Source: a virus. From it: 64,000 bases of DNA. The first letter of the stretch is position 1. Each line of letters opens with the position of its first letter. The stretch is taken from the IMG/VR virus record IMGVR_UViG_3300045988_155830, positions 1 to 64,000 of that record. One strand, 5' to 3'. The notes beneath the pieces are model-generated. The model did not search any database and was not told the origin of the DNA. It saw only the letters and a list, made by a program, of their open reading frames with translations. Position numbers and translations under genes: made by a program. Shown piece after piece: positions 2,130 to 58,600 of the stretch.

Positions 2130-2170
2130 ATCCATAGTAAATGATTTACTACACAGGAGGTAGCGAAATA

Positions 2171-3124
2171 ATGAATACAAACACAGTAAAAATCACACCA
2201 TTATTCCAGAAAGTCGGAATTGACATTGTTGAATTTCCACAACAGGATAAAGCAACGAAATTAAAGAAAGATGGAACGCCAAAAAATATTGTGTGCAACA
2301 AAAAGAAAGGCAAGAAATCAGAAGCTTATGCTATTGAAATTCCTGATATTAAGAAGTTAATAGATTTCTTTTATCAAAATGAAATGTGGCAACATTATTT
2401 GATTTTTGTTTTGTCCTGTAATATGGCTCGCCGTATTGGTGATACACTTACTTTGACTTGGGAGCATTTCTTTTATCCGACAACTGGTGCGATGAGAAAT
2501 GACTTGCTTGAAATCGTAGAGGACAAGACCGACAAGCTCGCAAATCCTCATATCAATTCAGCCTGCAAAAAAGCAATTCTGCTTTATATTGAAAAAACAG
2601 GTATCAATCCTGCCGAAAACAATTATAAGAATTATGTTTTTGTGCAGACCAGCGGAAACTATAAAGGTAGAGTTATTACTGATGATGGCTACCGTAAAGG
2701 CTTGAAAAAGGCTGCTGTTCAAGTTGGTATTGAGTATAACATTGGAACTCATAGTCCTCGTAAAACTTTTGGTATGATTAGTAGGATGTTGCATCCAAAT
2801 GATTATGATAGTATGGAACTCCTTCAGACTATCTATAATCATAGCGATACCAAAACAACAAACCACTATATCGGATTAACAAAGAAGAAGATTGACACCT
2901 ACTATAATGATATGGGTTCATTTTTTGATGATTATATCACAGGTGATAAAACATATATGGAAGTTGCAGAGCAGCCCGTAGTAAGTATTGATACTAATTC
3001 TTTGAGAGATATTATCAAAGAGGCATATAAAGCCGGAGCAGAAAATGCAGATAACACCGACCCTGTTATTCACATTGATGCAATCAACAAAATTATCGGT
3101 ATGATTGAAAGAGTGGCAAAGTAA
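2171..3124 (+). CDS. tyrosine site-specific recombinase / phage integrase
   Basis: ARRIGD (box I Arg), HSPRKTFG (H-x-x-R) and a C-terminal NHY(I) tyrosine motif, matching the R-H-R-Y catalytic signature; RBS GGAGG precedes ATG 2171. Confidence 0.6.
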   Translation: MNTNTVKITPLFQKVGIDIVEFPQQDKATKLKKDGTPKNIVCNKKKGKKSEAYAIEIPDIKKLIDFFYQNEMWQHYLIFVLSCNMARRIGDTLTLTWEHFFYPTTGAMRNDLLEIVEDKTDKLANPHINSACKKAILLYIEKTGINPAENNYKNYVFVQTSGNYKGRVITDDGYRKGLKKAAVQVGIEYNIGTHSPRKTFGMISRMLHPNDYDSMELLQTIYNHSDTKTTNHYIGLTKKKIDTYYNDMGSFFDDYITGDKTYMEVAEQPVVSIDTNSLRDIIKEAYKAGAENADNTDPVIHIDAINKIIGMIERVAK

Positions 3125-6959: not shown

Positions 6960-7373
6960 ATGTTATATGAAGAAATGCGATTGCGAAAGACTGGCGAAAC
7001 TGTAAGAGTATATGCTATTAACCCTTCGGAAAATATAGCAACTATATTCTCTACTTCTCAATATACTAAAACAAATAACGGATGGCAGAAAATTAAGTTA
7101 TCGCAGTTAGTTCCGATGGATTTTCCTATTAACAATAAAGATTATATTTCTAAAACAAAGAAGAACAAAGCGAAAGATAGAATGAAATTGATTGAAGCTA
7201 CTTGGCAAACCAGTGACGGAAATCTTTGGAATCATTCTGACATTGATGCAGCAGTGGAACACGAACTTTTTCTTATGAGTTTAGAGGAAAATGGCAATAA
7301 GGAAAATAAAGACGGTAATGAAATTGTATATACTGCATCAGGAAAAATTGTAAAAATAGGAGGTCAAATATGA
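6960..7373 (+). CDS. hypothetical protein
   Basis: 137-aa ORF with a GAAAGAG RBS. Confidence 0.5.
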   Translation: MLYEEMRLRKTGETVRVYAINPSENIATIFSTSQYTKTNNGWQKIKLSQLVPMDFPINNKDYISKTKKNKAKDRMKLIEATWQTSDGNLWNHSDIDAAVEHELFLMSLEENGNKENKDGNEIVYTASGKIVKIGGQI

Positions 7374-8434
7374 TTAAGTTTATTGATAAAAAGAATAGAT
7401 TTGTTGAAATGTTTGACAAGAATACAGGTTTTTATGTTAGAAGTGGAGTTATGGGAGAATATGGAAAAGATACTGGTGTTGACCCATTTATGAGATGTTT
7501 TCCAGCACTTATTGATGTTGGTATTATGAATAAATGTGTTTGCGCTCATAAGTGTAATGTTGACTGTTATCAGAGAGCCATCGACCGTCACGGAGATAAT
7601 ATGTCTCTTGAAGATTATAAGTCAATTCTTGAACAGTGTAAAGGCAAAACATTTCAGTATGCTTTGGGTGGAGCAGGAGACCCTGATACACACGAAAATT
7701 TCAAGGAAATTCTTGAATTATCAAAAGAGTATGGTATCATACCAAACTTCACAACGTCAGGAATTATGATGACAGAAGAAAAAGCAAAACTTTGTAAAGA
7801 ATATTGTGGAGCAGTTGCCGTATCAGAACATTTTGCTGATTATACAAGAAAAGCTATTGATATGCTTTTGTCTGCCGGAGTAAAGACAAATATTCATTAT
7901 GTTCTTGGTTCTGATTCTATCGACTATGCTATTGAGCGGTTGAAGAACGGTGGGTTTGATAAAAGGATAAATGCTGTTGTATTTCTTCTTTACAAGCCCA
8001 TTGGTCTCGGAAGAAAAGAAAATATTTTAACAATGGATAATCCAAAAGTCAAAGAATTTTTTGAATTAGTTGATACAGGTAATTATCCTCATAAGATAGG
8101 CTTTGATTCTTGCTCGTGTGGTGGAATTGTAAACTTTTCACAGCATATTGATATGAACAGTATCGACTTCTGTGAGGGTGGCAGGTATTCAATGTATATT
8201 GATGCTGATATGAATGCTATGCCTTGTTCCTTTGGTAATCAGAATAGTAAGTATTTCGTGAGTCTGCGTAAATATTCTATTGAAGAAGCGTGGGAGAGTG
8301 AAATATTTAATCAATTCAGAAATTCTCTCAATCATTCTTGCCCTAACTGTAAAGATAGAGCAATGTGTGGCGGAGGTTGCCCCATTTGTCGAGATATTGT
8401 TTTATGTGACAGAAAGGAAAAACATTTACTATAA
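7370..8434 (+). CDS. radical-SAM-like / SPASM-domain enzyme, with a non-canonical N-terminal Cys cluster
   Basis: C-terminal CPNCKDRAMCGGGCPIC has the Cx2Cx5Cx3C SPASM/twitch spacing; a Gly-rich ALGGAGDP motif resembles the GGE motif; the N-terminal Cys cluster is CVCAHKCNVDC. Confidence 0.5.
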   Translation: MIKFIDKKNRFVEMFDKNTGFYVRSGVMGEYGKDTGVDPFMRCFPALIDVGIMNKCVCAHKCNVDCYQRAIDRHGDNMSLEDYKSILEQCKGKTFQYALGGAGDPDTHENFKEILELSKEYGIIPNFTTSGIMMTEEKAKLCKEYCGAVAVSEHFADYTRKAIDMLLSAGVKTNIHYVLGSDSIDYAIERLKNGGFDKRINAVVFLLYKPIGLGRKENILTMDNPKVKEFFELVDTGNYPHKIGFDSCSCGGIVNFSQHIDMNSIDFCEGGRYSMYIDADMNAMPCSFGNQNSKYFVSLRKYSIEEAWESEIFNQFRNSLNHSCPNCKDRAMCGGGCPICRDIVLCDRKEKHLL

Positions 8435-8541
8435 TGAAAATTAGAACAGATTTTGTAACAAACAGTTCAAGCAGTAGCTATGTTATTGCTTATAAAAAAA
8501 TACCAGAGATTGATGAAGATTTCATTATATTAGAGGATTAT
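8434..8541 (+). CDS. 35-aa peptide sharing the conserved N-terminus MKIRTDFVTNSSSSSYV (paralog 1 of 3)
   Basis: The ATG overlaps the stop of the rSAM-like gene (TAATG); the N-terminal 17 aa are conserved with the next two ORFs. Confidence 0.4.
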
Positions 8542-8546
8542 TAAAT

Positions 8547-8870
8547 ATGAAAATACGAAAAGATTTTGTGACCAATAGTAGCTCATCAAGTTTTATCATT
8601 TGTAAAGATTCTTTACCTGATGATATTAGAGAAAAAGTAGTATCATATATTGAAGAACATTTCGATGCAGCAACAGTTGAAAAAATGTATCAATATTATA
8701 AAGATTGTGATTTTGATTCTATTTATTATTTGGTAGATTATCATCCTAATGATAATGAAATGCACATATGGGTTACAAGAGATGAAAGTATGTGCGATGA
8801 TAACATAGATGATATTCTTTATAAATATGATAATACATCTATTGAGCCTAAATTTGATTTGCATTATTAA
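8547..8870 (+). CDS. 107-aa acidic protein with the conserved N-terminus MKIRKDFVTNSSSSSFI (paralog 2)
   Basis: Shares the N-terminal 17-aa motif; the nucleotide sequence diverges at synonymous sites. Confidence 0.5.
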   Translation: MKIRKDFVTNSSSSSFIICKDSLPDDIREKVVSYIEEHFDAATVEKMYQYYKDCDFDSIYYLVDYHPNDNEMHIWVTRDESMCDDNIDDILYKYDNTSIEPKFDLHY

Positions 8871-8881
8871 GGAGGTGTAAA

Positions 8882-9448
8882 ATGAAATACAGAAAAGATT
8901 TTGTAACGAACAGTAGTAGTTCGAGTTACATATGTGAAATATGTGGAAATTGTGAAAGCGGATATGATGTTGGGTTAAGTGAATTCGGAATGAGTGAATG
9001 TGTGAATGGTCATATATTTTGTGATGAACATAAACTCTCTATCACTGAAACAAAAGAGGATTTAATTAAATCAATTCTTGAAAATGAATATAATCATTCA
9101 ACAGAAGAAGAACTCAATGATATGGATATTGAAGAATTATTCAATAAAAAATATGATGGTGGTCATTATGAAATACCTGAATATATGTGTCCTATATGTC
9201 AATTCATTGAGTATAGTGAATCCGACCTTGCACAATATCTCTTAAAAGCATATCAAGTATCGAGAGATACTGTATTTGCCGAGGTTAAGAAATTCAACAA
9301 GAGAAGAAAGAAATTATATGACAGCGAATACATTACCTATGTTTGTCAACAGTATAATCTCATTCCGGCTGAAATTGTTTCAAGTTGGAAAGAGAAATTT
9401 GGAACATACGATAATTTCATAACATATCTGAATTCTCACGAAAATTAG
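8882..9448 (+). CDS. 188-aa Cys-rich protein with the conserved N-terminus MKYRKDFVTNSSSSSYI (paralog 3)
   Basis: GGAGG RBS; shares the N-terminal motif; multiple CxxC pairs. Confidence 0.5.
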   Translation: MKYRKDFVTNSSSSSYICEICGNCESGYDVGLSEFGMSECVNGHIFCDEHKLSITETKEDLIKSILENEYNHSTEEELNDMDIEELFNKKYDGGHYEIPEYMCPICQFIEYSESDLAQYLLKAYQVSRDTVFAEVKKFNKRRKKLYDSEYITYVCQQYNLIPAEIVSSWKEKFGTYDNFITYLNSHEN

Positions 9449-9559: not shown

Positions 9560-10168
9560 ATGAAAGTTAATATTACAAACAACATTTCTAATGTAAATGT
9601 TACAGTCAATCAGAATGATGATGGCTCACTTGCTATTCTTCTTTTTGAAAAGACAGGCAAAAAGCTCGGTGATTTTAAGCCCGGTGAAACTGTAAAACTC
9701 GGCAAACGTGAGTATATTATTCTTGGTCACGGAGCAGAAACAACGGCAGTTGTGACAAAAGATATTTCAAAGGAAATGGAGTTCGGCAAGAGCTGGGATT
9801 ATTCAAAAAGTTATGTTCGTGATTACTGTAATGGAGATTTCTATAATGAACTTGCAGAAGCAGTCGGCAAGAACAATATTGTTCCTCACAGAGTAAATCT
9901 CACCTGTGACGATGGCTCAAACAAAGGTGTAACTTGTAAGGATGATGTTTCTATTCTCACAACTGAAAATTATCGCCGTTATCGTGAATATCTCCCTGCA
10001 CTCGGCAAACCTTGTTGGACTGCAACAGGTGTTACTACACTTGATAAGGATTATGCTCGTAGCGTTTGCTGTGTCAATTCCTACGGCATTCTTTGCTGGC
10101 GTGATTGTGACTTTGCCTTTGGTGTGCGTCCGTTTTGTATCTTGAATTCTTCAATCCTTGTATCTTGA
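9560..10168 (+). CDS. DGR target protein 1, with a variable C-terminus in a DUF1566/C-type-lectin-like domain
   Basis: The C-terminal 27 codons coincide with VR1; the ending YARSVCCVNSYGILCWRDCDFAFGVRPF resembles a DUF1566/CLec-fold C-terminus. Confidence 0.6.
   Translation: MKVNITNNISNVNVTVNQNDDGSLAILLFEKTGKKLGDFKPGETVKLGKREYIILGHGAETTAVVTKDISKEMEFGKSWDYSKSYVRDYCNGDFYNELAEAVGKNNIVPHRVNLTCDDGSNKGVTCKDDVSILTTENYRRYREYLPALGKPCWTATGVTTLDKDYARSVCCVNSYGILCWRDCDFAFGVRPFCILNSSILVS
10055..10134 (+). repeat. DGR variable repeat VR1
   Basis: 80 bp aligned to TR 10570-10649 has 9 mismatches, every one at a TR adenine (9 of 16 TR adenines substituted, 0 of 64 non-A positions). Confidence 0.8.
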
Positions 10169-10179
10169 ATTGACTTCAA

Positions 10180-10548
10180 ATGAGTGAAGAAACTAAATTT
10201 CTAATAGGTGAAAAAGCGGAAATACTATATACAGAGGTTTTTGACTTGACAACAAATAGACAACATTATCCTGTTAAGTTTCGCAGACTTGCCGACAAAT
10301 TACAAGAATATACACTTGATATACATAGTGATATTATGGATGCGAATTCATATCCAACTGATACGTTAAACCATAAGCAGAAAAGGTATGACTTACAAAC
10401 AAGTGCAATAACAAAGTGCAATAAACTTGCTTCTTTAGTAAAATATAGTTTACACGCTCATTTAATAAGTTTTAGTACAAGCGAGAAGTTGATAGCGTTG
10501 ATACACGATGTAAAATTTATGGCTCTCGCTTGGAGAAAGCAAACTTAA
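10180..10548 (+). CDS. avd: DGR accessory variability determinant (Avd)
   Basis: 122 aa, sitting between target and TR; internal YPVKFRRL...IMDANS and C-terminal LIALIHDVKFMALAWRK match the bAvd four-helix-bundle pattern as I recall it. Confidence 0.6.
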   Translation: MSEETKFLIGEKAEILYTEVFDLTTNRQHYPVKFRRLADKLQEYTLDIHSDIMDANSYPTDTLNHKQKRYDLQTSAITKCNKLASLVKYSLHAHLISFSTSEKLIALIHDVKFMALAWRKQT

Positions 10549-10569
10549 TATTGTGGGTTATATGCTGTT

Positions 10570-10649
10570 GCTCGTAACGTTTGCTATGTCAATTCCAACG
10601 GCATTCTTAACTGGAATGATTGTGACTATGCCTATGGTGTGCGTCCGTT
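10570..10649 (+). repeat. DGR template repeat (TR), non-coding
   Basis: Near-identical to VR1 and VR2; rich in AAC/AAT/TAT codons in the VR frame; lies between avd and the RT; the overlapping ORFs 10553..10771 and 10639..10848 are spurious. Confidence 0.8.
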
Positions 10650-10763
10650 CTGGTGGATTAGTGAGGTTTATAGACCACTTTTGTGGTCACAAAGAGTACA
10701 CCACTACATCAAAAGAGCATATAACCCTTCTCATAGAAAGTGGGATAAATACAAAAGATTATT

Positions 10764-12176
10764 ATGGATGATTTTCAGACCCTCGTTGATTTTGAAAATC
10801 TCTATAATTCTTACCGAACTTCTATGCGAGGTAAAGGTAAGAAATTGAGTGCGGCGAAGTTCGATGTTATGGCACTTGAAAACCTTTATGTGATGAAGAA
10901 ACAACTCATTAACCATACATATAGGATTTCACCGTATTCAGAGTTTATTGTAACAGAGCCAAAGAAAAGAATAATCAAATCAGGTTCATTTCGAGATAAG
11001 GTATTACAACATTGCTTATGTGATTATGTATTATTGCCAACTATGAAAGACCGTTTTATAAAGGACAATTATGCAGGTCAAATTGGTAAAGGAACATTAT
11101 TCGGACTAAATCGTTTGTCAGAAAATTTACATAATTTTTATGACAAATATGGTAGTGATGGATATATACTAAAATGTGATATAACCAAATTCTTTTATAG
11201 TATCAACCACGATATTATGAAAGAGAAGATAAGAGAAAATTTTTCGGATGAAGATATTCAATGGATTTGTGATAGTTTTATAGATAGTGTTGATGGAGAT
11301 GGGCTACCTCTTGGAAATCAAAGCAGTCAAGTATTTGCCCTGATATTCCTCAACGGACTTGACCATTATATTGTCGATGAGCTTGGATGTAAATATTATG
11401 GCAGATATATGGATGACTTTTATTTACTATCTAATGATAAAGAGTATCTAAAAGAATGTCTTATTAAAATCAAAGAGTATTTAGCTAACTTAAAATTAAC
11501 GCTTAATAACAAGACTGAAATTGTTTCTATGAGTAAAGGTATTAGATTTCTTGGTTTTCATACATATTTGACCGAGCAAGGTAATGTTATAAGAAAACTA
11601 AATGGAGATAACAAAAGACAAGTTAAAAAGCGTTTAAGAAAGTACACAAAGTTAGTAGTACAAGGAAGAATGAAACGAGAAAAGTTCAATGAGATTTACT
11701 GTTCTTGGCGGAATCACGCATCTCACGGTAACTGTTTCAAGTTGATTTATGGAATGGATTTGTTTGTGGAAAATTTATTTAATGAAGAAAAACCTGAAAT
11801 AAGGGTTATTATTGCCGGTAGTAGAGACTTTAATAACTACGAACTATTGGAAAAGCACCTTAATAAATTCGTCAAAGAACACCCTAATAATAAGATAACT
11901 ATTATAAGCGGTGCTGCTCGTGGTGCAGACCAACTCGGAGAAAGATATGCCAGAGAAAAGTGCATATTATTAAAGAGGTTTTCGGCAAATTGGGAACAAT
12001 TCGGTAAAAGGGCAGGTTATATTAGAAACATTCAAATGCTCGACTATATAGATGCATCTACCTGCGATTCATATGTGTTTGCATTTTGGGATGGAAAGAG
12101 TAAAGGAACAAAACAAATGATTGATAGTGCTAAAAAACGAAATATACCGTATCAAATTGTAGCATTTCAATCTTAA
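10764..12176 (+). CDS. DGR reverse transcriptase with an extra C-terminal SLOG/DprA-like domain
   Basis: YMDD motif; PLGNQSSQVFALIFLNGLD matches the DGR-specific [LI]GxxxSQ motif; C-terminal IISGAARGADQLGE resembles the Rossmann-like SLOG/DprA fold. Confidence 0.85.
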   Translation: MDDFQTLVDFENLYNSYRTSMRGKGKKLSAAKFDVMALENLYVMKKQLINHTYRISPYSEFIVTEPKKRIIKSGSFRDKVLQHCLCDYVLLPTMKDRFIKDNYAGQIGKGTLFGLNRLSENLHNFYDKYGSDGYILKCDITKFFYSINHDIMKEKIRENFSDEDIQWICDSFIDSVDGDGLPLGNQSSQVFALIFLNGLDHYIVDELGCKYYGRYMDDFYLLSNDKEYLKECLIKIKEYLANLKLTLNNKTEIVSMSKGIRFLGFHTYLTEQGNVIRKLNGDNKRQVKKRLRKYTKLVVQGRMKREKFNEIYCSWRNHASHGNCFKLIYGMDLFVENLFNEEKPEIRVIIAGSRDFNNYELLEKHLNKFVKEHPNNKITIISGAARGADQLGERYAREKCILLKRFSANWEQFGKRAGYIRNIQMLDYIDASTCDSYVFAFWDGKSKGTKQMIDSAKKRNIPYQIVAFQS

Positions 12177-15206: not shown

Positions 15207-16553
15207 ATGACAAACACATATATAATTGCAAGAAAAATTCAACTGATACCAGTAGGAAAGAAGGAAGAAGTTAATCGAGTTTATACATATATTAAGGATG
15301 GTATAAAATCACAAAATATGGCAATGAACCAGTATATGAGTGCTTTATATACTTCAACTATTATGGAAATGACAAAAGATGATAGAAAAGAATTAAGCAG
15401 ACTATTTGGTAGAATTAGTACAAGCAAATTAGGAAGTGCTTATGATAAAACAATAGAGTTTGCAAAGGGGCTACCTATGGGTGGTGCAATTCAGCAAAAA
15501 GTCAAAAAAGATTTCGATAATGCAATGAAAAAAGGACTTAAATACGGCAAACTATCTTTACCATCATATCGTGATAGCAATCCTCTTTTGGTACACGTTG
15601 ATTATGTTAGACTTCGTTCTACGAATCCACATTTGGATAACGGCTTATATCACAACTATAGTAGCCACGAAGAATTTTTAAATCACTTATATAACGAAAA
15701 ACTTGAATTGTTTATTAAGTTCGCAAACAAAATTACATTCAAACTTGTTTTAGGCAATCCACGAAAATCAGCAGAAATCAGAAGTGTTTTCAAAAATATT
15801 TTTGAGGATTATTATCACATAAAAGGAAGCTCCATTGAACTTGACGGAACGAAAATTATCTTAAATATGTCGATTGAAATTCCGAAAAAGAAAGTTGTTC
15901 TTGACGAAAATGTTGTTGTTGGCGTGGATTTAGGAATCGCAATTCCTGCCGTATGTGCCTTGAATACCAATGACTATGTAAGAAAAAGCATAGGTTCACG
16001 AGATGATTTTTTGAGAGTAAGAACACAGATTAAATCTCAAAGGGACAGGCTTAAAAGGAAGTTGAAATATACAAGGGGCGGTCACGGCAGAGCGAAGAAA
16101 ATGCAGGCTATGGATAGGTTTACTGATTATGAGAAAAATTGGGTACAAACCTACAACCACAAAGTTAGCAAAGATGTCGTTGATTTTGCGTTGAAAAACA
16201 AGGCTAAATATATAAATCTCGAATGTTTAGACGGTTTCAGTAAGGATGATAAAAAGAAAAATTACTTATTAGCGAACTGGTCTTATTACCAGTTGCAACA
16301 ATACATAAAATACAAAGCCGAAAAATATGGAATTGTGGTTAGATTTGTAAATCCCGCTTATACCTCTCAAACCTGTAACTGTTGTGGTAATTTAGAAGAA
16401 GGACAAAGAGTTAAGCAATCAGAATTTATCTGTAAAAATCCAGAGTGTAAAAATTTTGGGAAGAAAATCAATGCTGATTTCAATGCGGCTCGCAACATCT
16501 CAATGTCAACAGACTTTGTTGAGAAAGAAGAAGAAAAAGAAAGAATTACATAA
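15207..16553 (+). CDS. compact type V effector (TnpB/Cas12f-like RuvC nuclease, 448 aa)
   Basis: RuvC-I VGVDLGIAIPAV; RuvC-II YINLECLDG; zinc finger CNCCGN...CKNPECKNFG; RuvC-III INADFNAARNI; ATG 19 nt after the last repeat with RBS GAAGGAAAG; no tnpA nearby. Confidence 0.75.
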   Translation: MTNTYIIARKIQLIPVGKKEEVNRVYTYIKDGIKSQNMAMNQYMSALYTSTIMEMTKDDRKELSRLFGRISTSKLGSAYDKTIEFAKGLPMGGAIQQKVKKDFDNAMKKGLKYGKLSLPSYRDSNPLLVHVDYVRLRSTNPHLDNGLYHNYSSHEEFLNHLYNEKLELFIKFANKITFKLVLGNPRKSAEIRSVFKNIFEDYYHIKGSSIELDGTKIILNMSIEIPKKKVVLDENVVVGVDLGIAIPAVCALNTNDYVRKSIGSRDDFLRVRTQIKSQRDRLKRKLKYTRGGHGRAKKMQAMDRFTDYEKNWVQTYNHKVSKDVVDFALKNKAKYINLECLDGFSKDDKKKNYLLANWSYYQLQQYIKYKAEKYGIVVRFVNPAYTSQTCNCCGNLEEGQRVKQSEFICKNPECKNFGKKINADFNAARNISMSTDFVEKEEEKERIT

Positions 16554-33201: not shown

Positions 33202-35151
33202 ATGAATGAAAATAGAGTAGAGGAAGTTAAATCCCTCGTTAAAAAATTAAATAAGTACAGAGATGAATACTATAACAATAATAATAGTATCATTTCTGAC
33301 AGAGAGTATGATGAACTCTTTGATAAACTAATTGTTTTAGAACGAGAGACAGGATGTATATTCTCAAATTCACCGACACAATCTGTTGGTTATATGAGCT
33401 TGAGTCAGTTACAGAAAGTCAAACATAGCCATCCTTTATTATCTCTTGGTAAGACAACAGATATTGATGAGTTTATTAAGTATTTCGGCAACAAAGATTT
33501 TCTTATTATGGCAAAACTTGATGGGCTTACTTGCTCCTTGACATATGATAATGGTAAACTCATAAGAGCCGAAAGTCGTGGTGACGGTGAAACCGGAGAA
33601 GATATTACCCACAATGCCAAAGTATTTTCTAATCTTCCAACGGAAATTCCATTTAAGGGTAAACTCGAAATTGATGGCGAGTGTATTATTACTTATGATG
33701 AATTTGAACGTATTAAAGCAAAAGAAAATACGGAATATAAAAATCCACGAAATCTTGTAAGTGGTTCAGTACGTCAGTTGAATAGTGAAATTGCTGCAAA
33801 ACGGAATATCAAGTTTATAGCTTGGAGGCTTCACGAAGCAGAAAATGTTGATATTCAGTATCATTCTGAAGGTTTTGAATTTCTATCAAATCTTGGCTTT
33901 GATGTAGTACCTTATTATACCAATAGTTTTAATACTATTGAATGGATTAAAGATGAATGCGAAACCAAACAGATTCCGATTGATGGAATAGTAGGAATGT
34001 TTGATGATATTGAGTATGGAAATTCTCTTGGTAGAACAGGACATCACCCAAGACATTCTCTTGCATATAAATTCTATCAAGAGGAAAACGAAACGGTTTT
34101 GCTTAACATTGAGTGGTCAACGAGCAGAACTGGTCTTGTAAATCCTGTTGCAATTTTTGAGCCTGTCGAGATTGATGGGACTACTGTATCTCGTGCTACT
34201 CTTAACAATGTAAGTATCATCCAAGAGCTTGAACTTGGTATTGGTGATACTGTAACTGTTATTAAAGCAAATCAGATTATCCCGAAAATCACACAAAATC
34301 TTACAAGAAGTAATACATACCAAATACCTTCAGTATGCCCATCTTGTGGAAATCCTGTGACAATAAAGAATGATAATGGTAGAGAAATGCTTTACTGCAC
34401 AAACAGACATTGTAAAGCAATTCTTCACGATAAAATTTCAAACTATGCTACAAGGGAAGCAATGAATATTGTAGGTATATCAGAAGAAAGGTTACGCTCT
34501 CTTATGGATATGGGTTATATTACAAGTTTTGAGAGCCTTTATCACCTTAAAGATTATCGTAATGAAATTGCAAAAGCAAAAGGTTTTGGTGAATCAAGCA
34601 TTGATAAGATTATCAATGCTATTGAAGTTAGTAAAAAATGTCAGTTAATCAATATTATTGTTGCTATTGGTATTCCGGGAATTGGTAAATCAGCAGCAAG
34701 AACGATGGCTGAATATTGTGAAGAAACAGGAGCAGAAAATACATTTCAAGAGTTTATCAATCTTGCAATATTAGGATTTGATTGGAGTGCATTACAGGAA
34801 ATCGGACAGGCAACAAGTGATAATATCAATTCATATGTTGTAGATAATTATGAAGATATTCAACCTCTTGTTAATATTCTCCAAATTGAAAAACCACGAA
34901 AATCAGATTTAAGTCAGAGATACAAAGGTAAAACATTTTGTATTACAGGAAAATTAGTTGAATTTGATAACCGTAATGCTCTTGTGTATGATATTGAAAC
35001 AAAAGGTGGAACGGTAGTTTCTTCCGTGACTTCTAAAACACAATATTTAATTACAAATGATAAGACTTCTGGTAGTTCTAAAAATAAAGCTGCCGATAAG
35101 TATGGAACAAAGATTATTTCTGAACTTGAATATATAATGGGAAATTTCTAA
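33202..35151 (+). CDS. ligA: NAD+-dependent DNA ligase
   Basis: KxDG adenylation motif (IMAKLDGLT); Cys4 zinc finger CPSCGN..C..C; HhH and C-terminal BRCT-like regions; length 649 aa. Confidence 0.9.
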   Translation: MNENRVEEVKSLVKKLNKYRDEYYNNNNSIISDREYDELFDKLIVLERETGCIFSNSPTQSVGYMSLSQLQKVKHSHPLLSLGKTTDIDEFIKYFGNKDFLIMAKLDGLTCSLTYDNGKLIRAESRGDGETGEDITHNAKVFSNLPTEIPFKGKLEIDGECIITYDEFERIKAKENTEYKNPRNLVSGSVRQLNSEIAAKRNIKFIAWRLHEAENVDIQYHSEGFEFLSNLGFDVVPYYTNSFNTIEWIKDECETKQIPIDGIVGMFDDIEYGNSLGRTGHHPRHSLAYKFYQEENETVLLNIEWSTSRTGLVNPVAIFEPVEIDGTTVSRATLNNVSIIQELELGIGDTVTVIKANQIIPKITQNLTRSNTYQIPSVCPSCGNPVTIKNDNGREMLYCTNRHCKAILHDKISNYATREAMNIVGISEERLRSLMDMGYITSFESLYHLKDYRNEIAKAKGFGESSIDKIINAIEVSKKCQLINIIVAIGIPGIGKSAARTMAEYCEETGAENTFQEFINLAILGFDWSALQEIGQATSDNINSYVVDNYEDIQPLVNILQIEKPRKSDLSQRYKGKTFCITGKLVEFDNRNALVYDIETKGGTVVSSVTSKTQYLITNDKTSGSSKNKAADKYGTKIISELEYIMGNF

Positions 35152-48094: not shown

Positions 48095-49126
48095 GTGAGT
48101 ATGATTGATATTAAAAAGATAATCCAAAACACAGAGTATGATTTTTTACGAACCAATGAAAATCTTGGTAGTAATATTTTTCTACTCGGATTTGGTGGCA
48201 GTTATGCTTATGGTACAAACAATGAAAACTCTGACATTGATATTAGAGGTATAGCCACAAATAGTAAAAGAAATATTCTTACAGGTAATGATTTTGAACA
48301 AGTTGTTGATATTGATACCGATACAACTGTATATTCATTCGATAAGATTATCAAATTGTTATGTTCTTGTAACCCGAATACAGTAGAAATGTTAGGATTA
48401 AAACCCGAACATTATTTCTATCTTACAAATATTGGTAGAGAACTCATAGAAAATAAATCATTATTCTTGTCAAAAAGAGCAATCCATTCATTTGGCGGAT
48501 ATGCAAACGCCCAGCTGCGAAGGTTGGAAAATAAATCTGTTCGTTTGGTTAGTCAAAGTCAGCAGGAGCAACATATTTTGAAAAGTATCGAACACGCTTC
48601 TGCTGATTTCAGAGAAAGATATTTTGATATGCCGGAAGATGCAATTACTCTGTATGTTGATAAATCGGAGCAGGAAGGTTATGATACGGAAATTTTCTGC
48701 GATGTTACATTAAAGCATTATCCTCTCCGAGATTATAAAGGAATGTTTTCCGATATGGGTACAATTATAAAGTCTTACTCAAAAATCGGTAAGAGAAATG
48801 AAAAGGCTATCGGGCATAATAAGTTGGGTAAACATATGATGCATCTTGTTCGTCTTTACCTTATGGCATTTGATATTCTTGAAAAAGGCGAAATCAATAC
48901 TTATCGAGATAAAGAACACGATTTCCTTATGAAAATAAGAAATGGTGGTTATCTCGATGAAAATAGACAGCCAACAAAGGAATTCTATGAAATTGTTGAT
49001 GAGTATGAAAACAGGCTTGATAGACTCAAGGCAACAACGGATTTGCCTGAAACAGTAGATATGAACAAGGTTATGGATTTTGTAGCCAAAGTAAATGAGA
49101 TGGTCGTTTCAGGAGGTAATATATGA
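48095..49126 (+). CDS. nucleotidyltransferase-fold protein (Pol-beta superfamily)
   Basis: GFGGSYAYGTNNENSDIDIRG matches the GS..D.D motif. Confidence 0.5.
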   Translation: MSMIDIKKIIQNTEYDFLRTNENLGSNIFLLGFGGSYAYGTNNENSDIDIRGIATNSKRNILTGNDFEQVVDIDTDTTVYSFDKIIKLLCSCNPNTVEMLGLKPEHYFYLTNIGRELIENKSLFLSKRAIHSFGGYANAQLRRLENKSVRLVSQSQQEQHILKSIEHASADFRERYFDMPEDAITLYVDKSEQEGYDTEIFCDVTLKHYPLRDYKGMFSDMGTIIKSYSKIGKRNEKAIGHNKLGKHMMHLVRLYLMAFDILEKGEINTYRDKEHDFLMKIRNGGYLDENRQPTKEFYEIVDEYENRLDRLKATTDLPETVDMNKVMDFVAKVNEMVVSGGNI

Positions 49127-50073
49127 CAAGGGAAGAAGTGCTGAATTCTATTCAGTTGAAAAAGAGATTCTGTAAAGATTGTAATATACCGATTGCCGTG
49201 TTTGATAATCCGTATTTTTGTGAAAGACTTATAACACTTGATACAATTTTTAATTGTGTTGAACAGTTTAATCTGTTTTGTGTAGAAATGCAGCAGTTCA
49301 ATAATGAGCAGGATTATTTTGAATACTATAATTTAGTAAAAGATAAAATGATTTCGGATATTAAAGGAAATCATACATATCAATCTTTCAATATAGATTT
49401 AAGTGGTAAATCTGAAACTGCCCTTAATATAGAAAGAGCAAAAGTCGGAAAGAAAAACCTTTATGTTGAAAATAATGACGGAAAGGCATTTATATCTATT
49501 GATATGAAAAAAGCAAACTTTTCATCAATGAACTTCTATTCGAGAGATATTTTCGATTGCGACACCTGGGAAGATTATGTTGGAAAATTTACGAATAGTT
49601 TACATATTCAAAATAGTAAATATATCAGACAGGTTGTATTAGGTGCTTGTAATCCTAAAAGACAAATTCAGTATGAGCATTCATTGATGTTAAAACTCTA
49701 TCTACATATCAAAGACACACTTAATGACAATGGTTTCACGGCTTACAGTATTGGCGAAGATGAAATACTTATAGAAGTAGGTCAGTTCCACCATCCGCTT
49801 AATAAGTTAAAAGAGGTTATTGATTCTTGTCCTTTAGGTATTGGTAATCTTGTAAGAGTTGAAATGTTTGATTTACAGAAAGCAGGAGATTATGGGTGGT
49901 TAAAAGTTATTTATGATGATAACCAGACCGTTAAATTCAAGTGTATTGATTCAGAGATATTTCATCAAATAGTTAAACACTATTACAATATACCAATTAC
50001 AGAAAATGACCTTGTATTTAGACATAATGGCAGACTTGCACGATTTTTAGAGGAGGTCAAAAATCCGTGGTAG
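49123..50073 (+). CDS. hypothetical protein (316 aa)
   Basis: Overlapping start and stop codons. Confidence 0.5.
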   Translation: MTREEVLNSIQLKKRFCKDCNIPIAVFDNPYFCERLITLDTIFNCVEQFNLFCVEMQQFNNEQDYFEYYNLVKDKMISDIKGNHTYQSFNIDLSGKSETALNIERAKVGKKNLYVENNDGKAFISIDMKKANFSSMNFYSRDIFDCDTWEDYVGKFTNSLHIQNSKYIRQVVLGACNPKRQIQYEHSLMLKLYLHIKDTLNDNGFTAYSIGEDEILIEVGQFHHPLNKLKEVIDSCPLGIGNLVRVEMFDLQKAGDYGWLKVIYDDNQTVKFKCIDSEIFHQIVKHYYNIPITENDLVFRHNGRLARFLEEVKNPW

Positions 50074-51392
50074 ATATAAAAATGCCTATGCCGGTTGAAT
50101 TTGCATTAAACAGATTGCATTCAAATGGTTATGAAGCTTATATCGTTGGTGGATGTGTACGTGATAGTATTATAGGAATTCAACCTCACGACTGGGATAT
50201 TTGCACATCTGCTTTGCCAGAGCAAGTCCAAGAAATATTCAAAGACTTAAAAGTAATTCCCACTGGTTTACAGCACGGAACAGTAACCGTTGTTTTTGAA
50301 GATGGCGATTGCAAGCAATGTCTTGAAATCACTACTTACAGAATTGACGGAGAATATAAAGATAACCGACACCCTGAAAATGTTAAGTTTGTATCTGACC
50401 TATCACTTGATTTAATGCGCAGAGATTTTACAATCAATGCTATGGCTTATAATGATAAAGAAGGCATCATTGATATGTTTGGCGGAGTTGAAGATATTGA
50501 AATGGGCTGTTTGAGATGTGTAGGAAATCCAGATGATAGATTTCAAGAAGATGCGCTCCGCATTATGAGAGCTATTCGCTTTGCAATTAGATATGATTTG
50601 CAAATTGATGATGAGATTATTAAATCAATTCAGAAAAACAAGATACTTTTGAAGAATGTATCTGTTGAAAGAATTTGTGCTGAATTGACAAAGATACTTG
50701 AATCAAATATCGGCAATGACGGTTCAAAGAAAAACAGGATTGAACTGATTGGTTATCTTATTGATTTTTTACAGGTAGTTCTTGATTACAAGATTGATTT
50801 TGATGAGCAAGAGGTTTACAACAGATTGGCTTTTGTTGAGCCAAATGTTCCATTAAGACTCGCAATCTTGTTTGATACTACTAATATTATGAATATCCTT
50901 AAAGATTTAAGGTTTTCAAACGATGTTGTATTTGCAGCACACGCTATCCGTGAATATGGTCATAAAATTCTTGACGAGAAAGATAAGCGGAGTAGCAAAT
51001 CAAGCATTGCGGCAGCAGTCAATAATCTGCATATAGGAGATAGAGAAGATAATGTTGAAGATGATAGCTCATTGCGTTACTATGCGAGACGGTCATTAAA
51101 AAACATTCATTCTTGCTCATTTGAATCCATAATATCGTTTGCAAAGGCTTATGTCAATGATGAATATATGTTTGTTGCATTAAACATTCTTCAAAGGCAA
51201 ATGCAATTTTGTAAAGAGAATGACGTATATTGCCTTCAGTATCTTGCCGTAAATGGCAATGATATTATGCAAGCCGGATTTGAGGGTAAGGATATAGGAG
51301 ATATATTAAATAAACTTCTCGATATGGTTATGCGAGAAGATGTCCGAAATAACAGAGAAGAATTGTTGGCTGCCGTATCAAAATTTAGATAA
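50067..51392 (+). CDS. tRNA nucleotidyltransferase (CCA-adding enzyme), class II
   Basis: GGCVRD, DWDI, RRDFTINAMAY and ERIxxE-like motifs. Confidence 0.8.
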   Translation: MVDIKMPMPVEFALNRLHSNGYEAYIVGGCVRDSIIGIQPHDWDICTSALPEQVQEIFKDLKVIPTGLQHGTVTVVFEDGDCKQCLEITTYRIDGEYKDNRHPENVKFVSDLSLDLMRRDFTINAMAYNDKEGIIDMFGGVEDIEMGCLRCVGNPDDRFQEDALRIMRAIRFAIRYDLQIDDEIIKSIQKNKILLKNVSVERICAELTKILESNIGNDGSKKNRIELIGYLIDFLQVVLDYKIDFDEQEVYNRLAFVEPNVPLRLAILFDTTNIMNILKDLRFSNDVVFAAHAIREYGHKILDEKDKRSSKSSIAAAVNNLHIGDREDNVEDDSSLRYYARRSLKNIHSCSFESIISFAKAYVNDEYMFVALNILQRQMQFCKENDVYCLQYLAVNGNDIMQAGFEGKDIGDILNKLLDMVMREDVRNNREELLAAVSKFR

Positions 51393-55448: not shown

Positions 55449-55655
55449 ATGTTTAAATGTAAAAATTGTGGAACTGAAATGGAGAGAGTTTATTCTTTTG
55501 AAAATGAGAATGAAAGTTATCAGCAGATGAAGTGTCCTAACTGTGGCGGTGCTACAAAAAAGAGACCTATCGTGTATGACGATAACGGCAATCTCGTAAC
55601 CAATTTCAAGAAGAACAATAAAAAGAAAAAGCAGAGAAAGGCTAAAGAAGAATGA
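55449..55655 (+). CDS. hypothetical zinc-ribbon protein
   Basis: CKNCG...CPNCGG. Confidence 0.45.
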   Translation: MFKCKNCGTEMERVYSFENENESYQQMKCPNCGGATKKRPIVYDDNGNLVTNFKKNNKKKKQRKAKEE

Positions 55656-58600
55656 TTATCAATGATAAGAGAGCATTAGCCTATATCGTAACCATTGATG
55701 AAATTAGACCTATTCCGAATTACGATAGGGTTGAACACGCTCGTACAAATGGATGGTGGTGTGTAACTCGTCTTAATGAATTAAAAGTTGGAGACAAAGC
55801 GGTTTATTTTGAAGTCGATAGCAAAGTGCCGGCAGATGATGAGAGATTTAGTTTCCTTGAGGCTAAACACTACAAGATTAAAACTCAAAAAATGTGTGGA
55901 GTTTTTTCACAAGGTTTGCTAATGCCAGTTACATTATTTCCTGAATTAGCGGATATGGAAGTCGGAACAGATGTTACTGATATTCTTAAAGTTACATATT
56001 CTGTCATTGAAGATAATACAAGAAAATCCAAAAATGGAGACCCTGATGCAAAATATAAGTCTATGGCACAGCGACATCAAAAGATTTTTAAGAAACCTAT
56101 TGTGCGAAAGATTATGAAACACAAGCTCGGCAGAAAGATTATGTTCCTTTTCTTTGGAAAAAAGAAAGATAAACCATTATCATTTCCGACACATTTCCCA
56201 TTTGTTCATAAGACAGATGAAGAAAGGTGTTTAATTGGCGATACAAAAGTCCAAACAAACAATGGTGTTTTAAAAATTGCCGACATAGTAAATAAAGAGT
56301 TGCCTGTTGAGGTTTTATCTTATAATGAGAAAACAAAAACAGTTGAATATAAACCGATTATTTCTTATCAAAAATTTGCGAAGAAAGAAGATGAAGATTT
56401 AATCGAAATAAAATATCCTTACAGATTTGGAAATCAAAAAACAAATACTATTCGTTGCACCCCAGACCATAAATTTTATAATGGTTCAACTTATGTACGA
56501 GCTGATGAAATTCATCAAGGTGATAAAATTTTTATTCACCATCATTGTTATGATGACTATGTTATTCAAGTTGTTTTTGGAATGCTACTTGGAGATTCTT
56601 CAATTTATTATGATAAGAGAAGTGGTAGTAATAATATCCGCATCCAAACCTCACAAGGCGAAAAACAATTAGATTACTTAAAAATGAAGCAATCGTTGTT
56701 TGGAGAACAATTCTTTAAGATTTCCAAATGTAAAAGCGGATATTGTGACAATGTGGTTTATAAAGGGTGTCTATCGGCTGATTACAATATTTCTAAAGCT
56801 GTATTAGAAAATTGTTTTATTAACAATAAGAAAACAATTACACCTACAATGTTAAAATATATTACGCCACTTTCTCTCGCAATTTGGTATATGGATGATG
56901 GCAACCTTAAACATAAATATGATAGTTGTAGTCCATCAATTATTATTTCTACTTGTGGTTTTTCAAAAAATGAAAATGAATTGCTAATTGATATGTTGAG
57001 AAATAATTTTGGAATTGAGTGCAACTTGCGTAGAGAGAAAAATAAATATTGGAGCATTTATATTACAACTGAAGGAACAAAGAAGTTCCTAAAACTCATT
57101 ACTCAATATATCCCACCGTGTATGAGGTATAAAACATTACAAGAATATGAGAATGATTATTTTTCTATCCAAGATTTAAGATATAAAAAGCAGGAACGAT
57201 TGATGCCCATACCAGTAATATCAATTAAAAAATATAAGGGTATTAGACGATATAAAACTGTTTTTGATATTGAAGTTAAAGATAATCATAATTTCTTTGC
57301 GAACAATATATTAACTCATAATTGTGAGAATATGCCGTGGGTTCTTGGATATGAAAGACCGTTAATCGTGACTGAAAAACTTGATGGTTGTCTTGATAGA
57401 GATGTTAGCGTTGTTACAGATGCTGGTTCGTTTAAGATTTCAGAAATTGTAAACAAAAAACTTCCTGTGAATGTTCTCACTTATAATTCTAATTTGAATA
57501 TTTGCGAATACAAACCGATTGTAGATTATCACAAATGGGAAAGAGTATCGGATATGTATGACATAGTAGTATCTCAACAAGGTTATAAGTGTGAAAACAA
57601 ACCGAAACATATTCGCTGTACAAGTGAACACAGCTTTTATGTTGGTAACAATCAATACATAAAAGCTAAAGACTTAAAAAATACTGATATAATTTATCAT
57701 AGATATGAAATTATTGATACATTAGTAAAAGAAATCTTATTGGGAATTTTGCTTGGAGATGCCTCATTATCTTCTAAATACGGAGTAATAAATGGTGGCG
57801 TTGATTTTAGTCATTCTATTAAACAGAAAGATTATTTTAATGAGATAAAAAGATTGTTGGGTCAAAATATTTCAATAGATACAACAAAATCGGGATATAA
57901 TTCTGAAATGTTAAGAGGTCATTTTTATACTAATTCAGAATTTAAGGAGTTGTCAAATAAAATATGTGTAAGAAATCACAAAAAATATGTAACACAAGAA
58001 TGGGCAAATGAATTAACTCCCATATCTCTTGCATTTTGGTATATGGACGATGGAACTATCTCAAATGCTGATTCAAAGTTGTCAAGACCTACAATTAGTA
58101 TTGCTACAAATGGTTTTAGTTATGAGGAATGCGAAAACTTAAAAAGAGCATTATCAACAAAGTTTAATATTGAATCAGACATAAAAATGGGAGAATCATA
58201 TAAAGGGAATACACTCTATATGAATACAATGAATACGGCTAAATTTGCTTCCTTGATTGCTCCATATATTTGCGATGGTATGAAGTACAAGTTGCCAAAA
58301 TCAATGAGAAATATTAAGTATTGTCTCGGAGATTATATAGCGAGCAATGGTAGCTCAATTACTCCCACGAAAATTATTTCTGTAAGAAAAATTGACAATT
58401 ATAACCGCAAATATGTTTTTGATTTAACAGTCAAAGATAACCATAACTATTTTGCAAACGGTATTTTAACACACAATACCTCATCTACATATATTCTTGA
58501 AAGAAAAGGCAAGAAAAAATTCGAGTTTTATGTTCTATCAAGAAATGTTCGTCAAAAGACACCTGACCAAAAGTGCTACCACGATAAGAATATTTACTGG

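Follow-up and report, generated by a model that had tools for sequence, protein, structure and literature searches.

Radical S-adenosylmethionine (SAM) enzymes with a SPASM domain are known as modifiers of peptides and of a few dedicated enzymes. Anaerobic sulfatase-maturating enzymes (anSMEs) oxidize a Ser or Cys side chain of a whole protein, which they find through a short linear motif, (C/S)-x-(P/A)-x-R. In the FxSxx-COOH/FxsB peptide-processing system, described by Haft and Basu in 2011 (as cited in PMC7159879), a radical SAM/SPASM enzyme and a zincin peptidase go together with a conserved C-terminal motif; the system is placed among conflict systems of the STAND and vWA kinds (Kaur et al. 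2020, PMC7159879). Radical SAM proteins also appear in antiphage immunity: KpAvs2 depends on two accessory genes, one for the radical SAM protein Avap1, without which some phages are not resisted, and one for the DUF6375-like Avap2, a constitutive partner of Avs2 whose gene resisted deletion; what either protein does was not settled by that study (Béchon et al. 2024, Nat Commun, PMC11564622). The subject here is a cassette in a 64,000-nucleotide stretch of viral DNA (positions 1 to 64,000 of IMG/VR record IMGVR_UViG_3300045988_155830; hereafter ‘the window’), in which a 354-aa radical SAM/SPASM enzyme is followed by three small proteins, called clients, that have a serine-rich N-terminal tag in common.

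The best reading of this locus is that it is not a classical pathway to RiPPs (peptides made by the ribosome and modified after translation), and that the substrates are whole proteins rather than peptides destined for cleavage. The enzyme would be a protein-level maturase that uses the dedicated N-terminal tag as its recognition element and most likely as its modification site, a substrate relationship to which a probability of about 55% is given. The tag–enzyme system is widespread and unannotated, and occurs as multi-client arrays in phages and as a compact cassette in bacteria, sometimes in STAND immune operons. No description of it was found in Pfam, NCBIfam, PADLOC or the literature on the motif, on SPASM enzymes and phages, and on Avap/DUF6375.

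Organization of the cassette

Four open reading frames (ORFs) on the plus strand, tightly coupled translationally, make up the cassette: the enzyme, a predicted tag maturase (7370..8434; 354 aa), and then three small tagged ORFs. The original prediction had placed all four, and its layout stands except that the first small ORF is 36 aa long (8434..8544) instead of 35. As had also been noticed, the TAA stop of the enzyme overlaps the ATG of client 1 (TAATG). Client 2 (8547..8870, plus strand; 107 aa, pI 4.4), which ends in the conserved C-terminus PKF-x-[YL]-HY (window 8847-8870), starts 2 nt past the client 1 stop. Client 3 (8882..9448, plus strand; 188 aa, pI 4.7), a Cys/His zinc-ribbon-like protein of client cluster c1 with a basic KKxNKRRKKLY patch, is preceded by a GGAGG ribosome-binding site 7 nt upstream of its start.

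Client 1 had been taken for an independent short paralogue, which it is not. A 97%-identical viral contig, L001, keeps it intact as a 142-aa protein (7065-7493 of that contig), and comparison shows that the window copy has undergone a 318-bp in-frame deletion between 7-bp direct repeats (ATGAAGA; microhomology), so that this remnant of the 142-aa ‘core’ client family retains the tag and its final 9 residues. This clean deletion shows that the client array is still turning over. A 137-aa ORF that overlaps the enzyme start is not conserved along with the module.

The N-terminal tag

The tag segments of clients 1, 2 and 3, MKIRTDFVTNSSSSSYV (8434..8484), MKIRKDFVTNSSSSSFI (8547..8597) and MKYRKDFVTNSSSSSYI (8882..8932), all on the plus strand, fit MK[IY]R.DFVTNSSSSS[FY]. 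A degenerate DNA pattern for DFVTNSSSS has three sites in the 64 kb, all of them in the window tags, against 0.06 expected, and none of 100 shuffles of the window gave three matches. Over their 17 codons the tags are pairwise 82-88% identical in amino acids and 63-71% in nucleotides, and in each pair 6-9 identical residues differ in codon, with switches between AGY and TCN serines among them. The argument from synonymous differences to selection, already made for these three ORFs, thus holds: on the codon evidence the tag is under selection at the protein level.

The same picture is obtained from a larger sample. The motif starts at residue 6 (offset 5 from Met1) in 351 of 353 distinct proteins, and both AGY and TCN codons are found at every tag Ser position among 332 distinct coding sequences. 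The search pattern fixed D6, N10, S11, S12 and S15, so that their invariance is in part built in; it left positions 13 and 14 free, and of the 332 sequences 331 and 318, respectively, have Ser there. Distant relatives have relaxed tags (DFVSNSSSVSY, DFVSNSSSTSF, DFVTNSSTTSF and GFVTNSSSTSF). A search of a 5.8-billion-protein database with a 42-aa tag alignment returned 42 proteins of 29-74 aa and is not a census, so that DNA-pattern and locus scans took its place. The tag–enzyme family is defined by a protein starting M-[KR]-x-[RK]-x-[DG]-[FY]-[VI]-[TS]-N-S-S-[ST]-x-S-[FY] and encoded no more than a few kb away from a gene homologous to that of the 354-aa enzyme; the window has three such clients directly 3′ of the enzyme.

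Linkage of tag and enzyme in phages and bacteria

Tag and enzyme were found together from whichever side the search was started. All 11 IMG/VR loci retrieved with the enzyme have 2-6 tagged ORFs directly downstream. A scan of IMG/VR with the tag alone gave at least 119 stretches, and the viral linkage count covers 130 loci, of which 78 have the enzyme, 10 have none in the sequence piece examined, 38 are not evaluable (the sequence piece ends too soon) and 4 are untagged under a stricter pattern; an enzyme homologue therefore lies within a few kb in 78 of 88 evaluable tagged loci. Among the 185,579 species-representative genomes of GTDB, 298 stretches encode DFVTNSSSS; in the best 80 of these loci, 4 of which are cut by contig ends, the enzyme adjoins the tag in 75 of 76 evaluable cases. 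The possibility that the motif is widespread without the enzyme, which the original prediction had named as refuting it, is thus not borne out.

The pairing persists where the enzyme is only ~33% identical and has the canonical Cx3Cx2C motif (L131, L217, L218, L224, L225 and L228). It is also visible in decay. Three cassettes (L143, L192 and L206) are degenerate, each with a frameshifted or fragmented enzyme gene; L192 and L206 have a truncated client, and that of L143 is intact minus one of the five serines. Such joint decay is consistent with two genes that are useful only together.

These counts bear on the idea that the shared N-terminus is a signal for capsid packaging or secretion and the radical SAM gene an unrelated neighbour. 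T4 internal proteins carry a capsid-targeting sequence and offer an analogue; several unrelated phage proteins do have a common short N-terminus here, and in large phage contigs such as L041, L096 and L098 some tagged genes are found at a distance from the enzyme. However, the enzyme linkage in genomes just given is nearly complete, the tag has no hydrophobic signal-peptide character, and the pair occurs as a two- to three-gene cassette in bacterial chromosomes, in plasmids including a conjugative Agrobacterium plasmid, and in STAND NTPase operons that contain no virion genes, for which reason this explanation is hardly credible. The alternative put forward at the outset, a tag recognized by the upstream enzyme, is closer to the data.

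The radical SAM/SPASM enzyme

Assignment of the 354-aa protein to the radical SAM/SPASM enzymes, suspected at the outset from its motifs, is supported by profile matches to PF04055 (Radical_SAM; 30.4 bits, cut-off 29.5), PF13186 (SPASM; 33 bits, cut-off 21.5) and TIGR04085 (28.9 bits, cut-off 27). In PHROGs the protein belongs to phrog_7293, of ‘unknown function’ (1e-25). Every NCBIfam equivalog match scores far under its cut-off, which places the enzyme in no named family; the weak matches include the RiPP maturases PqqE, MftC, WgkB and StsB. Homologues are numerous, with 3792 matches at E ≤ 1e-3 in a 90%-clustered database, and the enzyme family itself comprises 175 clusters (50% identity, E ≤ 1e-30).

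The three motifs that had attracted attention, CVCAHKCNVDC, GGAGDP and Cx2Cx5Cx3C, are all present. The first (residues 56-66; 7535..7567, plus strand) is read as C56-x5-C62-x3-C66. Among 42 diverse homologues C56, C62 and C66 are at least 90% conserved, while C58 is specific to the window subfamily, and in distant homologues the canonical C-x3-C-x2-C-Y-Q aligns onto C56/C62/C66. The loops vary, being Cx5Cx3C plus the extra C58 in the window subfamily and longer still in the bacterial subfamily. It is correct that the cluster of the window protein is not canonical, but by alignment it is an expanded-loop form of Cx3Cx2C and not another kind of site. GGAGDP (residues 100-105; 7667..7684, plus strand) aligns with GG-GEP and GG-GNP in distant homologues and corresponds to the ‘GGE’ SAM-binding motif with a one-residue insertion. 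In the SPASM domain (8111..8407, plus strand; PF13186 over residues 268-328 and TIGR04085 over residues 268-341), two auxiliary 4Fe-4S sites are expected: C248, C268, C286 and C337 are invariant in the same 42 homologues, C324, C327, C333 and C346 are at least 90% conserved, and the C-terminal motif reads C324-x2-C327-x5-C333-x3-C337.

Structure prediction agrees with the profiles. The AlphaFold2 model has a predicted local distance difference test score (pLDDT) of 94.9, and a Foldseek search of the PDB puts anSMEcpe (4k36-39) at the top (E 1.6e-12, TM ~0.6, identity 18-19%), followed by SuiB, PqqE, TigE, BtrN, CteB (5WHY/5WGG) and SkfB, with the matches to anSME, SuiB and PqqE at E ~1e-12. 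The family profile searched against PDB sequences finds SuiB (1e-15), anSME (2.7e-12), SkfB and PqqE; a search with the single sequence returned only repeat-protein artefacts, and the profile search was the informative one. Taken together, the motifs and the model indicate that the protein is a radical SAM/SPASM enzyme, with Fe-S cluster binding predicted, which also answers the early question of whether it has an Fe-S fold.

Ahead of the radical SAM core lies a family-specific extension (residues 1-45; 7370..7504, plus strand), which in model and alignment consists of three β-strands with a strongly conserved loop. The strands, by DSSP on the model, are E2-6, E11-15 and E22-24, and the invariant residues are F11, F15, T19, G20, Y22, R24, G26, D34, T35, P39, F40, M41 and P45. 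In sequence, residues 1-45 do not align with solved SPASM enzymes, the profile matches starting at position 44. The Pfam scan and the model gave no PqqD hit and no complete RiPP recognition element (RRE) domain, and the helices of an RRE are missing from the three modelled strands. From the model, the extension is a candidate tag-binding surface, perhaps a leader-binding sheet in reduced form.

Inteins (Intein_splicing, LAGLIDADG and Hint domains) interrupt the phage homologues P0172, P0175, P0223, P0236 and P0273; such insertions are typical of highly conserved, important phage genes.

The kinship of the enzyme also enters into another explanation, according to which the tagged proteins are interchangeable adaptors or regulators that dock on the enzyme and set its specificity or localization, the real substrate being a nucleotide, a nucleic acid, a lipid or a host protein. 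A single-copy enzyme is indeed kept with many alternative tagged partners, the KpAvs2 precedent has a constitutively bound Avap2 and a radical SAM Avap1 needed against some phages only, and PADLOC detects a weak resemblance to viperins in the radical SAM core (window enzyme, 1e-6; P0229, 5e-14). Yet that similarity is limited to the generic core, enzymes with SPASM and the closest solved relatives (anSME, SuiB, SkfB, PqqE and CteB) overwhelmingly modify peptides or proteins, and a docking tag would not need five invariant serines and an invariant T-N. An adaptor role is therefore considered improbable.

Client proteins

The tagged clients fall into at least 38 BLAST clusters and are ~90-260 aa long. 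Complete divergence past the tag, noted for the three window ORFs, is true at the sequence level and extends to most client families: with the tag removed, the hhalign links that carry any confidence are those of two pairs of clusters, and a further two pairs stand at ~43% probability. Clients match no Pfam, NCBIfam or PADLOC family; a weak match to phrog_7397 (‘unknown’) is found in 4 of 35. They are strongly acidic (median net charge -12, compared to +1 for neighbouring ORFs). The largest cluster, c0, has 111 members, which are phage proteins of 142 aa and single bacterial clients of 120-127 aa; judging from its distribution it looks like the ancestral client, truncated in the window as client 1. 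Cluster c1, the family of client 3, has 47 members, mostly viral. In its alignment C18, C21, C40, H44 and C47, and further on C103 and C106, are conserved, and the exact client 3 sequence is WP_295249862.1, a ‘hypothetical protein [Ruminococcus sp.]’ found on 192 contigs. Residues 118-158 of client 3, a conserved segment (window 9233-9355; DLAxYLLKxYxVSxDEVFAEVKKxNKRRKKLYDSEYI), give a weak profile match to residues 58-98 of the Shigella effector OspC3 (E 0.0046, 20.5 bits), which may be due to chance.

A model of the 107-aa client was built by AlphaFold2 from a 74-sequence alignment (pLDDT 80) and has no significant structural match. Its tag residues 3-11 score below 50, and the first strand of the fold spans residues 14-19 and so includes the C-terminal part of the tag (S14-K19). 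The tag is thus predicted to be an exposed N-terminal extension that continues straight into the fold, which argues that it is not a leader simply cleaved off.

This has consequences for the RiPP-like interpretation with which the locus was first presented, in which a conserved leader directs modification of variable cores and a peptide is then released. The layout invites it, with a conserved N-terminus, a variable remainder and an adjoining radical SAM/SPASM gene, and so do the weak NCBIfam matches to RiPP maturases mentioned above. The data speak otherwise: the clients are long, belong to many unrelated families and, in the one modelled case, are folded, with the tag forming part of the first strand; no residue pattern is common to the supposed cores; the Pfam scan and the model showed no complete RRE or PqqD domain in the enzyme; and neighbour clustering over 154 loci found no recurrent protease, transporter/exporter, flavodoxin or immunity gene beside the cassette. 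A classical RiPP pathway is accordingly very unlikely.

A stronger competitor concerns the other end of the clients. The tag could serve only as a leader or docking element, with the chemistry taking place elsewhere, for instance on a C-terminal aromatic, His or Gly residue (as MftC acts on the C-terminal Tyr of MftA), or as a staple cross-link between N- and C-termini. Client C-termini are family-specific and strongly conserved (PKFxYHY, RFSHH, CNHMG, DLSY and AGRDG). Y, H or G closes 57% of clients; the commonest final residues in neighbouring ORFs include none of these three. Of the 17 clusters with three or more members, 11 have an aromatic residue or His within their final three positions, against ~37% expected from composition. 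The four clients linked to SMEK or P-loop NTPases (L217, L218, L224 and L228) all end in W, and the mycofactocin maturase is among the nearly full-length NCBIfam matches to the enzyme. The enrichment is real but moderate, and could mark a second site of enzyme action. It is, however, missing from large families: in c1 an aromatic residue or His falls among the final three residues of only about one-third of members, and c3 is dominated by AGRDG/AGRNG endings. Moreover, five near-invariant serines are hard to explain in a pure docking element, and there is little precedent for a reaction 100-250 residues away from the leader on a folded protein. This alternative is considered unlikely, and modification within the tag is retained as the preferred reading.

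Genomic architectures and conflict context

In phages the enzyme comes first and is followed by 2-10 clients; in bacteria one client usually lies immediately upstream of the enzyme. The neighbour clustering places an XRE-type regulator near the bacterial cassette in 28 loci and two recurrent membrane-protein-like genes in one phage group. The main bacterial carriers are Lachnospiraceae, Oscillospiraceae and Selenomonadaceae, and other cassettes are found in Fretibacterium, Desulfobacterales, Gastranaerophilales, Kaiserbacteria, Bacteroidales and plasmids of Rhizobiaceae.

Several cassettes are built, with overlapping genes, into operons with STAND-type NTPases. In L131, client, enzyme and Avs2 are overlapping genes (PADLOC Avs2, 2e-69). 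In L217 (Agrobacterium tumefaciens Ach5 plasmid pAt, 20854-25306), L218 and L224 the order is SMEK_N NTPase, ~120-aa gene, client and enzyme, with a further NTPase downstream of the operon in L218; from its gene content this four-gene operon appears to be an undescribed candidate defence system. In L228, enzyme, P-loop NTPase and client follow each other. The ORFs scanned near the window cassette gave no match to an NTPase family, and the 748-aa ORF has no Walker A motif.

Other neighbourhoods were observed in passing. Genes for a (p)ppGpp synthetase and an integrase are found a few kb away from the pAt Ach5 operon. As read from translated ORFs and not from profile hits, L138 is flanked by CRISPR-Cas genes, and L177 by restriction-modification genes and a conjugation coupling protein. 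In L212-L215 the module stands beside Thg1-like, RNA-ligase and metallophosphatase genes (Pfam), and in L021 beside genes for NAD salvage and a macro domain, as read from sequence. The accessory regions of several large phages and of one bacterial locus (L021, L212-L215 and L191) are of the kind often devoted to counter-defence.

Proposed mechanism

We infer that the tag is the substrate and carries the modification, and the steps below are proposed on that footing. The enzyme would recognize a strictly N-terminal M-K-[IVF]-R-x-D-[FY]-V-T-N-S-S-S-S-S-[FY], probably as an exposed extended peptide, which its N-terminal β-sheet may, by conjecture, add as a further strand. A 5′-deoxyadenosyl-radical reaction would then take place within the tag, on or beside the T-N-S5 stretch. 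Abstraction of hydrogen from a Ser carbon is the simplest guess, and the outcome could be formylglycine (as in anSME), epimerization or a cross-link to a flanking aromatic residue. In phages, one enzyme would serve a variable array of small acidic clients, most likely host-takeover or anti-defence effectors. In bacteria, one client and the enzyme, often with an XRE regulator, are found in variable or mobile regions, and in several lineages they share an operon with STAND NTPase immune sensors. A biological role in phage–host conflict is held with lower confidence than the substrate relationship.

A number of points weigh against this proposal. Tagged genes occur in 10 viral loci where the enzyme is absent from the sequence piece examined, and in the GTDB locus L165 as an orphan gene without the enzyme. 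In the T4-like phages RB16, KP15, KP27 and Miller a homologue of 28% identity stands without tagged genes in its vicinity, which implies that other substrates exist in the wider enzyme clade. The enzyme could use the tag for docking only and act elsewhere, or might act on a non-protein substrate. As to the conflict role, what suggests it is gene neighbourhood, and most Firmicutes cassettes have no recognizable adjoining NTPase.

A wider scenario is put forward as speculation and is rather unlikely as a whole. The modification might be shared by both sides of an arms race, STAND operons (Avs2 and SMEK-type) using one modified client as a regulatory or sensing subunit, and temperate and large phages of gut Firmicutes using their own enzyme to arm diversifying tagged acidic proteins that would mimic, titrate or disable these sensors or other host targets. 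The T-N-S5 chemistry would then be new, for example serine-derived aldehydes or cross-links.

Other features of the window

A complete diversity-generating retroelement (DGR) lies directly downstream of the tag array (window 9560-12176). It consists of a target gene (9560-10168) with a DUF6273 match, a 122-aa helical ORF (10180-10548) that is Avd-like by guess, a template repeat (~10590-10680) and, at 10764-12176, a reverse transcriptase that carries a fused YspA/SLOG domain. In the alignment of variable and template repeats, nearly all mismatches in the well-aligned core fall at template adenines, the classic DGR signature. Homologues of the target gene are found near the enzyme–tag module in eight other loci.

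The ORF at 42503-43702 matches phrog_1211 (2.1e-54), named ‘2-aminooxy adenylosuccinate synthetase’ in PHROGs, which we take to be PurZ-like and which would hint at a 2-aminoadenine (Z) genome. In L023 and ~10 related loci the ORF just upstream of the enzyme is adenylosuccinate-synthetase-like by its N-terminal sequence. A 1119-aa ORF (55652-59011) matches the RNA ligase phrog_968 in two stretches, with a LAGLIDADG homing-endonuclease family at residues 692-883, and looks like an RNA ligase containing an intein. Together with genes for a CCA-adding enzyme (50067-51392), a nucleotidyltransferase (48095-49126) and an NAD-dependent DNA ligase (33202-35151), it suggests a tRNA/RNA repair set typical of large phages. 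A TnpB (Cas12f1-like TNB and OrfB_IS605 domains) and a tyrosine integrase are encoded at 15207-16553 and 2141-3124, respectively. Contigs of up to 907 kb that are assigned to Ruminococcus sp. carry the exact 188-aa client, and the phage is therefore probably temperate. No nucleotide similarity to the window was found among INPHARED phages.

Significance

Neither the class of enzyme nor the concept of a radical SAM maturase encoded next to its substrate is new; what is unusual is the substrate logic and the biological setting. If the proposal is true, one maturase chooses dozens of unrelated proteins through an invariant 16-residue tag, a different way of choosing substrates, and probably introduces a new modification of a serine-rich sequence. 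The placement beside Avs2 and SMEK NTPases bears on the role of radical SAM accessory genes in STAND immunity. The system also marks many small acidic phage proteins as candidate effectors of host interaction or anti-defence, and a short genetically encodable tag with a dedicated modifying enzyme is a possible tool for biotechnology.

Comparison with known systems

Like the Avap1/Avap2 genes, locus L131 has a radical SAM protein and a small protein (~130 aa) in an operon with an Avs2 STAND NTPase. The KpAvs2-type operon of Vibrio harveyi p345-185 was retrieved as a reference for this pair. The tag enzyme profile matches its radical SAM core at 6.5e-22; that protein, however, has 319 aa and, by sequence inspection, no SPASM Cys motifs, the gene order is reversed, and the partner is a DUF6375 protein (MKIWQGYGAEHS...) without the Ser tag. 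DUF6375 and the tagged proteins showed no homology by hhalign (probability ≤1.1%) or BLAST, and none of 35 diverse clients matched PF19902 (DUF6375) at E ≤ 10, so identity with Avap1/Avap2 is rejected for the small protein. The relation is one of analogy or perhaps distant kinship, not membership.

In the FxSxx-COOH system, as here, fast-diverging small proteins keep only a short terminal motif and are associated with a radical SAM/SPASM partner and STAND proteins. There, however, the motif is C-terminal and a zincin peptidase releases a peptide, whereas here the motif is N-terminal and no peptidase recurs; FxsB was not among the 25 of 27 NCBIfam matches listed for the enzyme.

The RiPP maturases SuiB/StrB, PqqE, MftC, CteB and SkfB have the same architecture, are the closest relatives and have their substrate gene adjoining. 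They differ in having an RRE/PqqD domain or partner, short precursors, a cleavable leader and a defined core. In the present system no complete RRE was found, the proposed substrates are folded (as modelled for one), the conserved element is apparently the site itself and an enzyme has up to 10 clients.

The anSMEs serve one enzyme family, whereas the present tag is strictly N-terminal, has five serines and heads many unrelated proteins. Their target motif is missing from tags and clients, and no sulfatase gene is adjacent. Sequence identity is low, as given above, and no anSME model is among the 25 of 27 NCBIfam matches listed. The 45-residue N-terminal β extension and the expanded Cys-loop spacing are specific to the tag enzyme family, unlike anSME. 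In architecture the two nevertheless agree, anSMEcpe of Clostridium perfringens (PDB 4K36-4K39) being a radical SAM/SPASM enzyme of similar size with no RRE, a domain of which no complete copy was found in the tag enzyme either. Of all the systems compared, anSME offers the best structural match to the modelled enzyme and, by its action on a side chain within a whole protein, the best functional analogy to what is proposed here.

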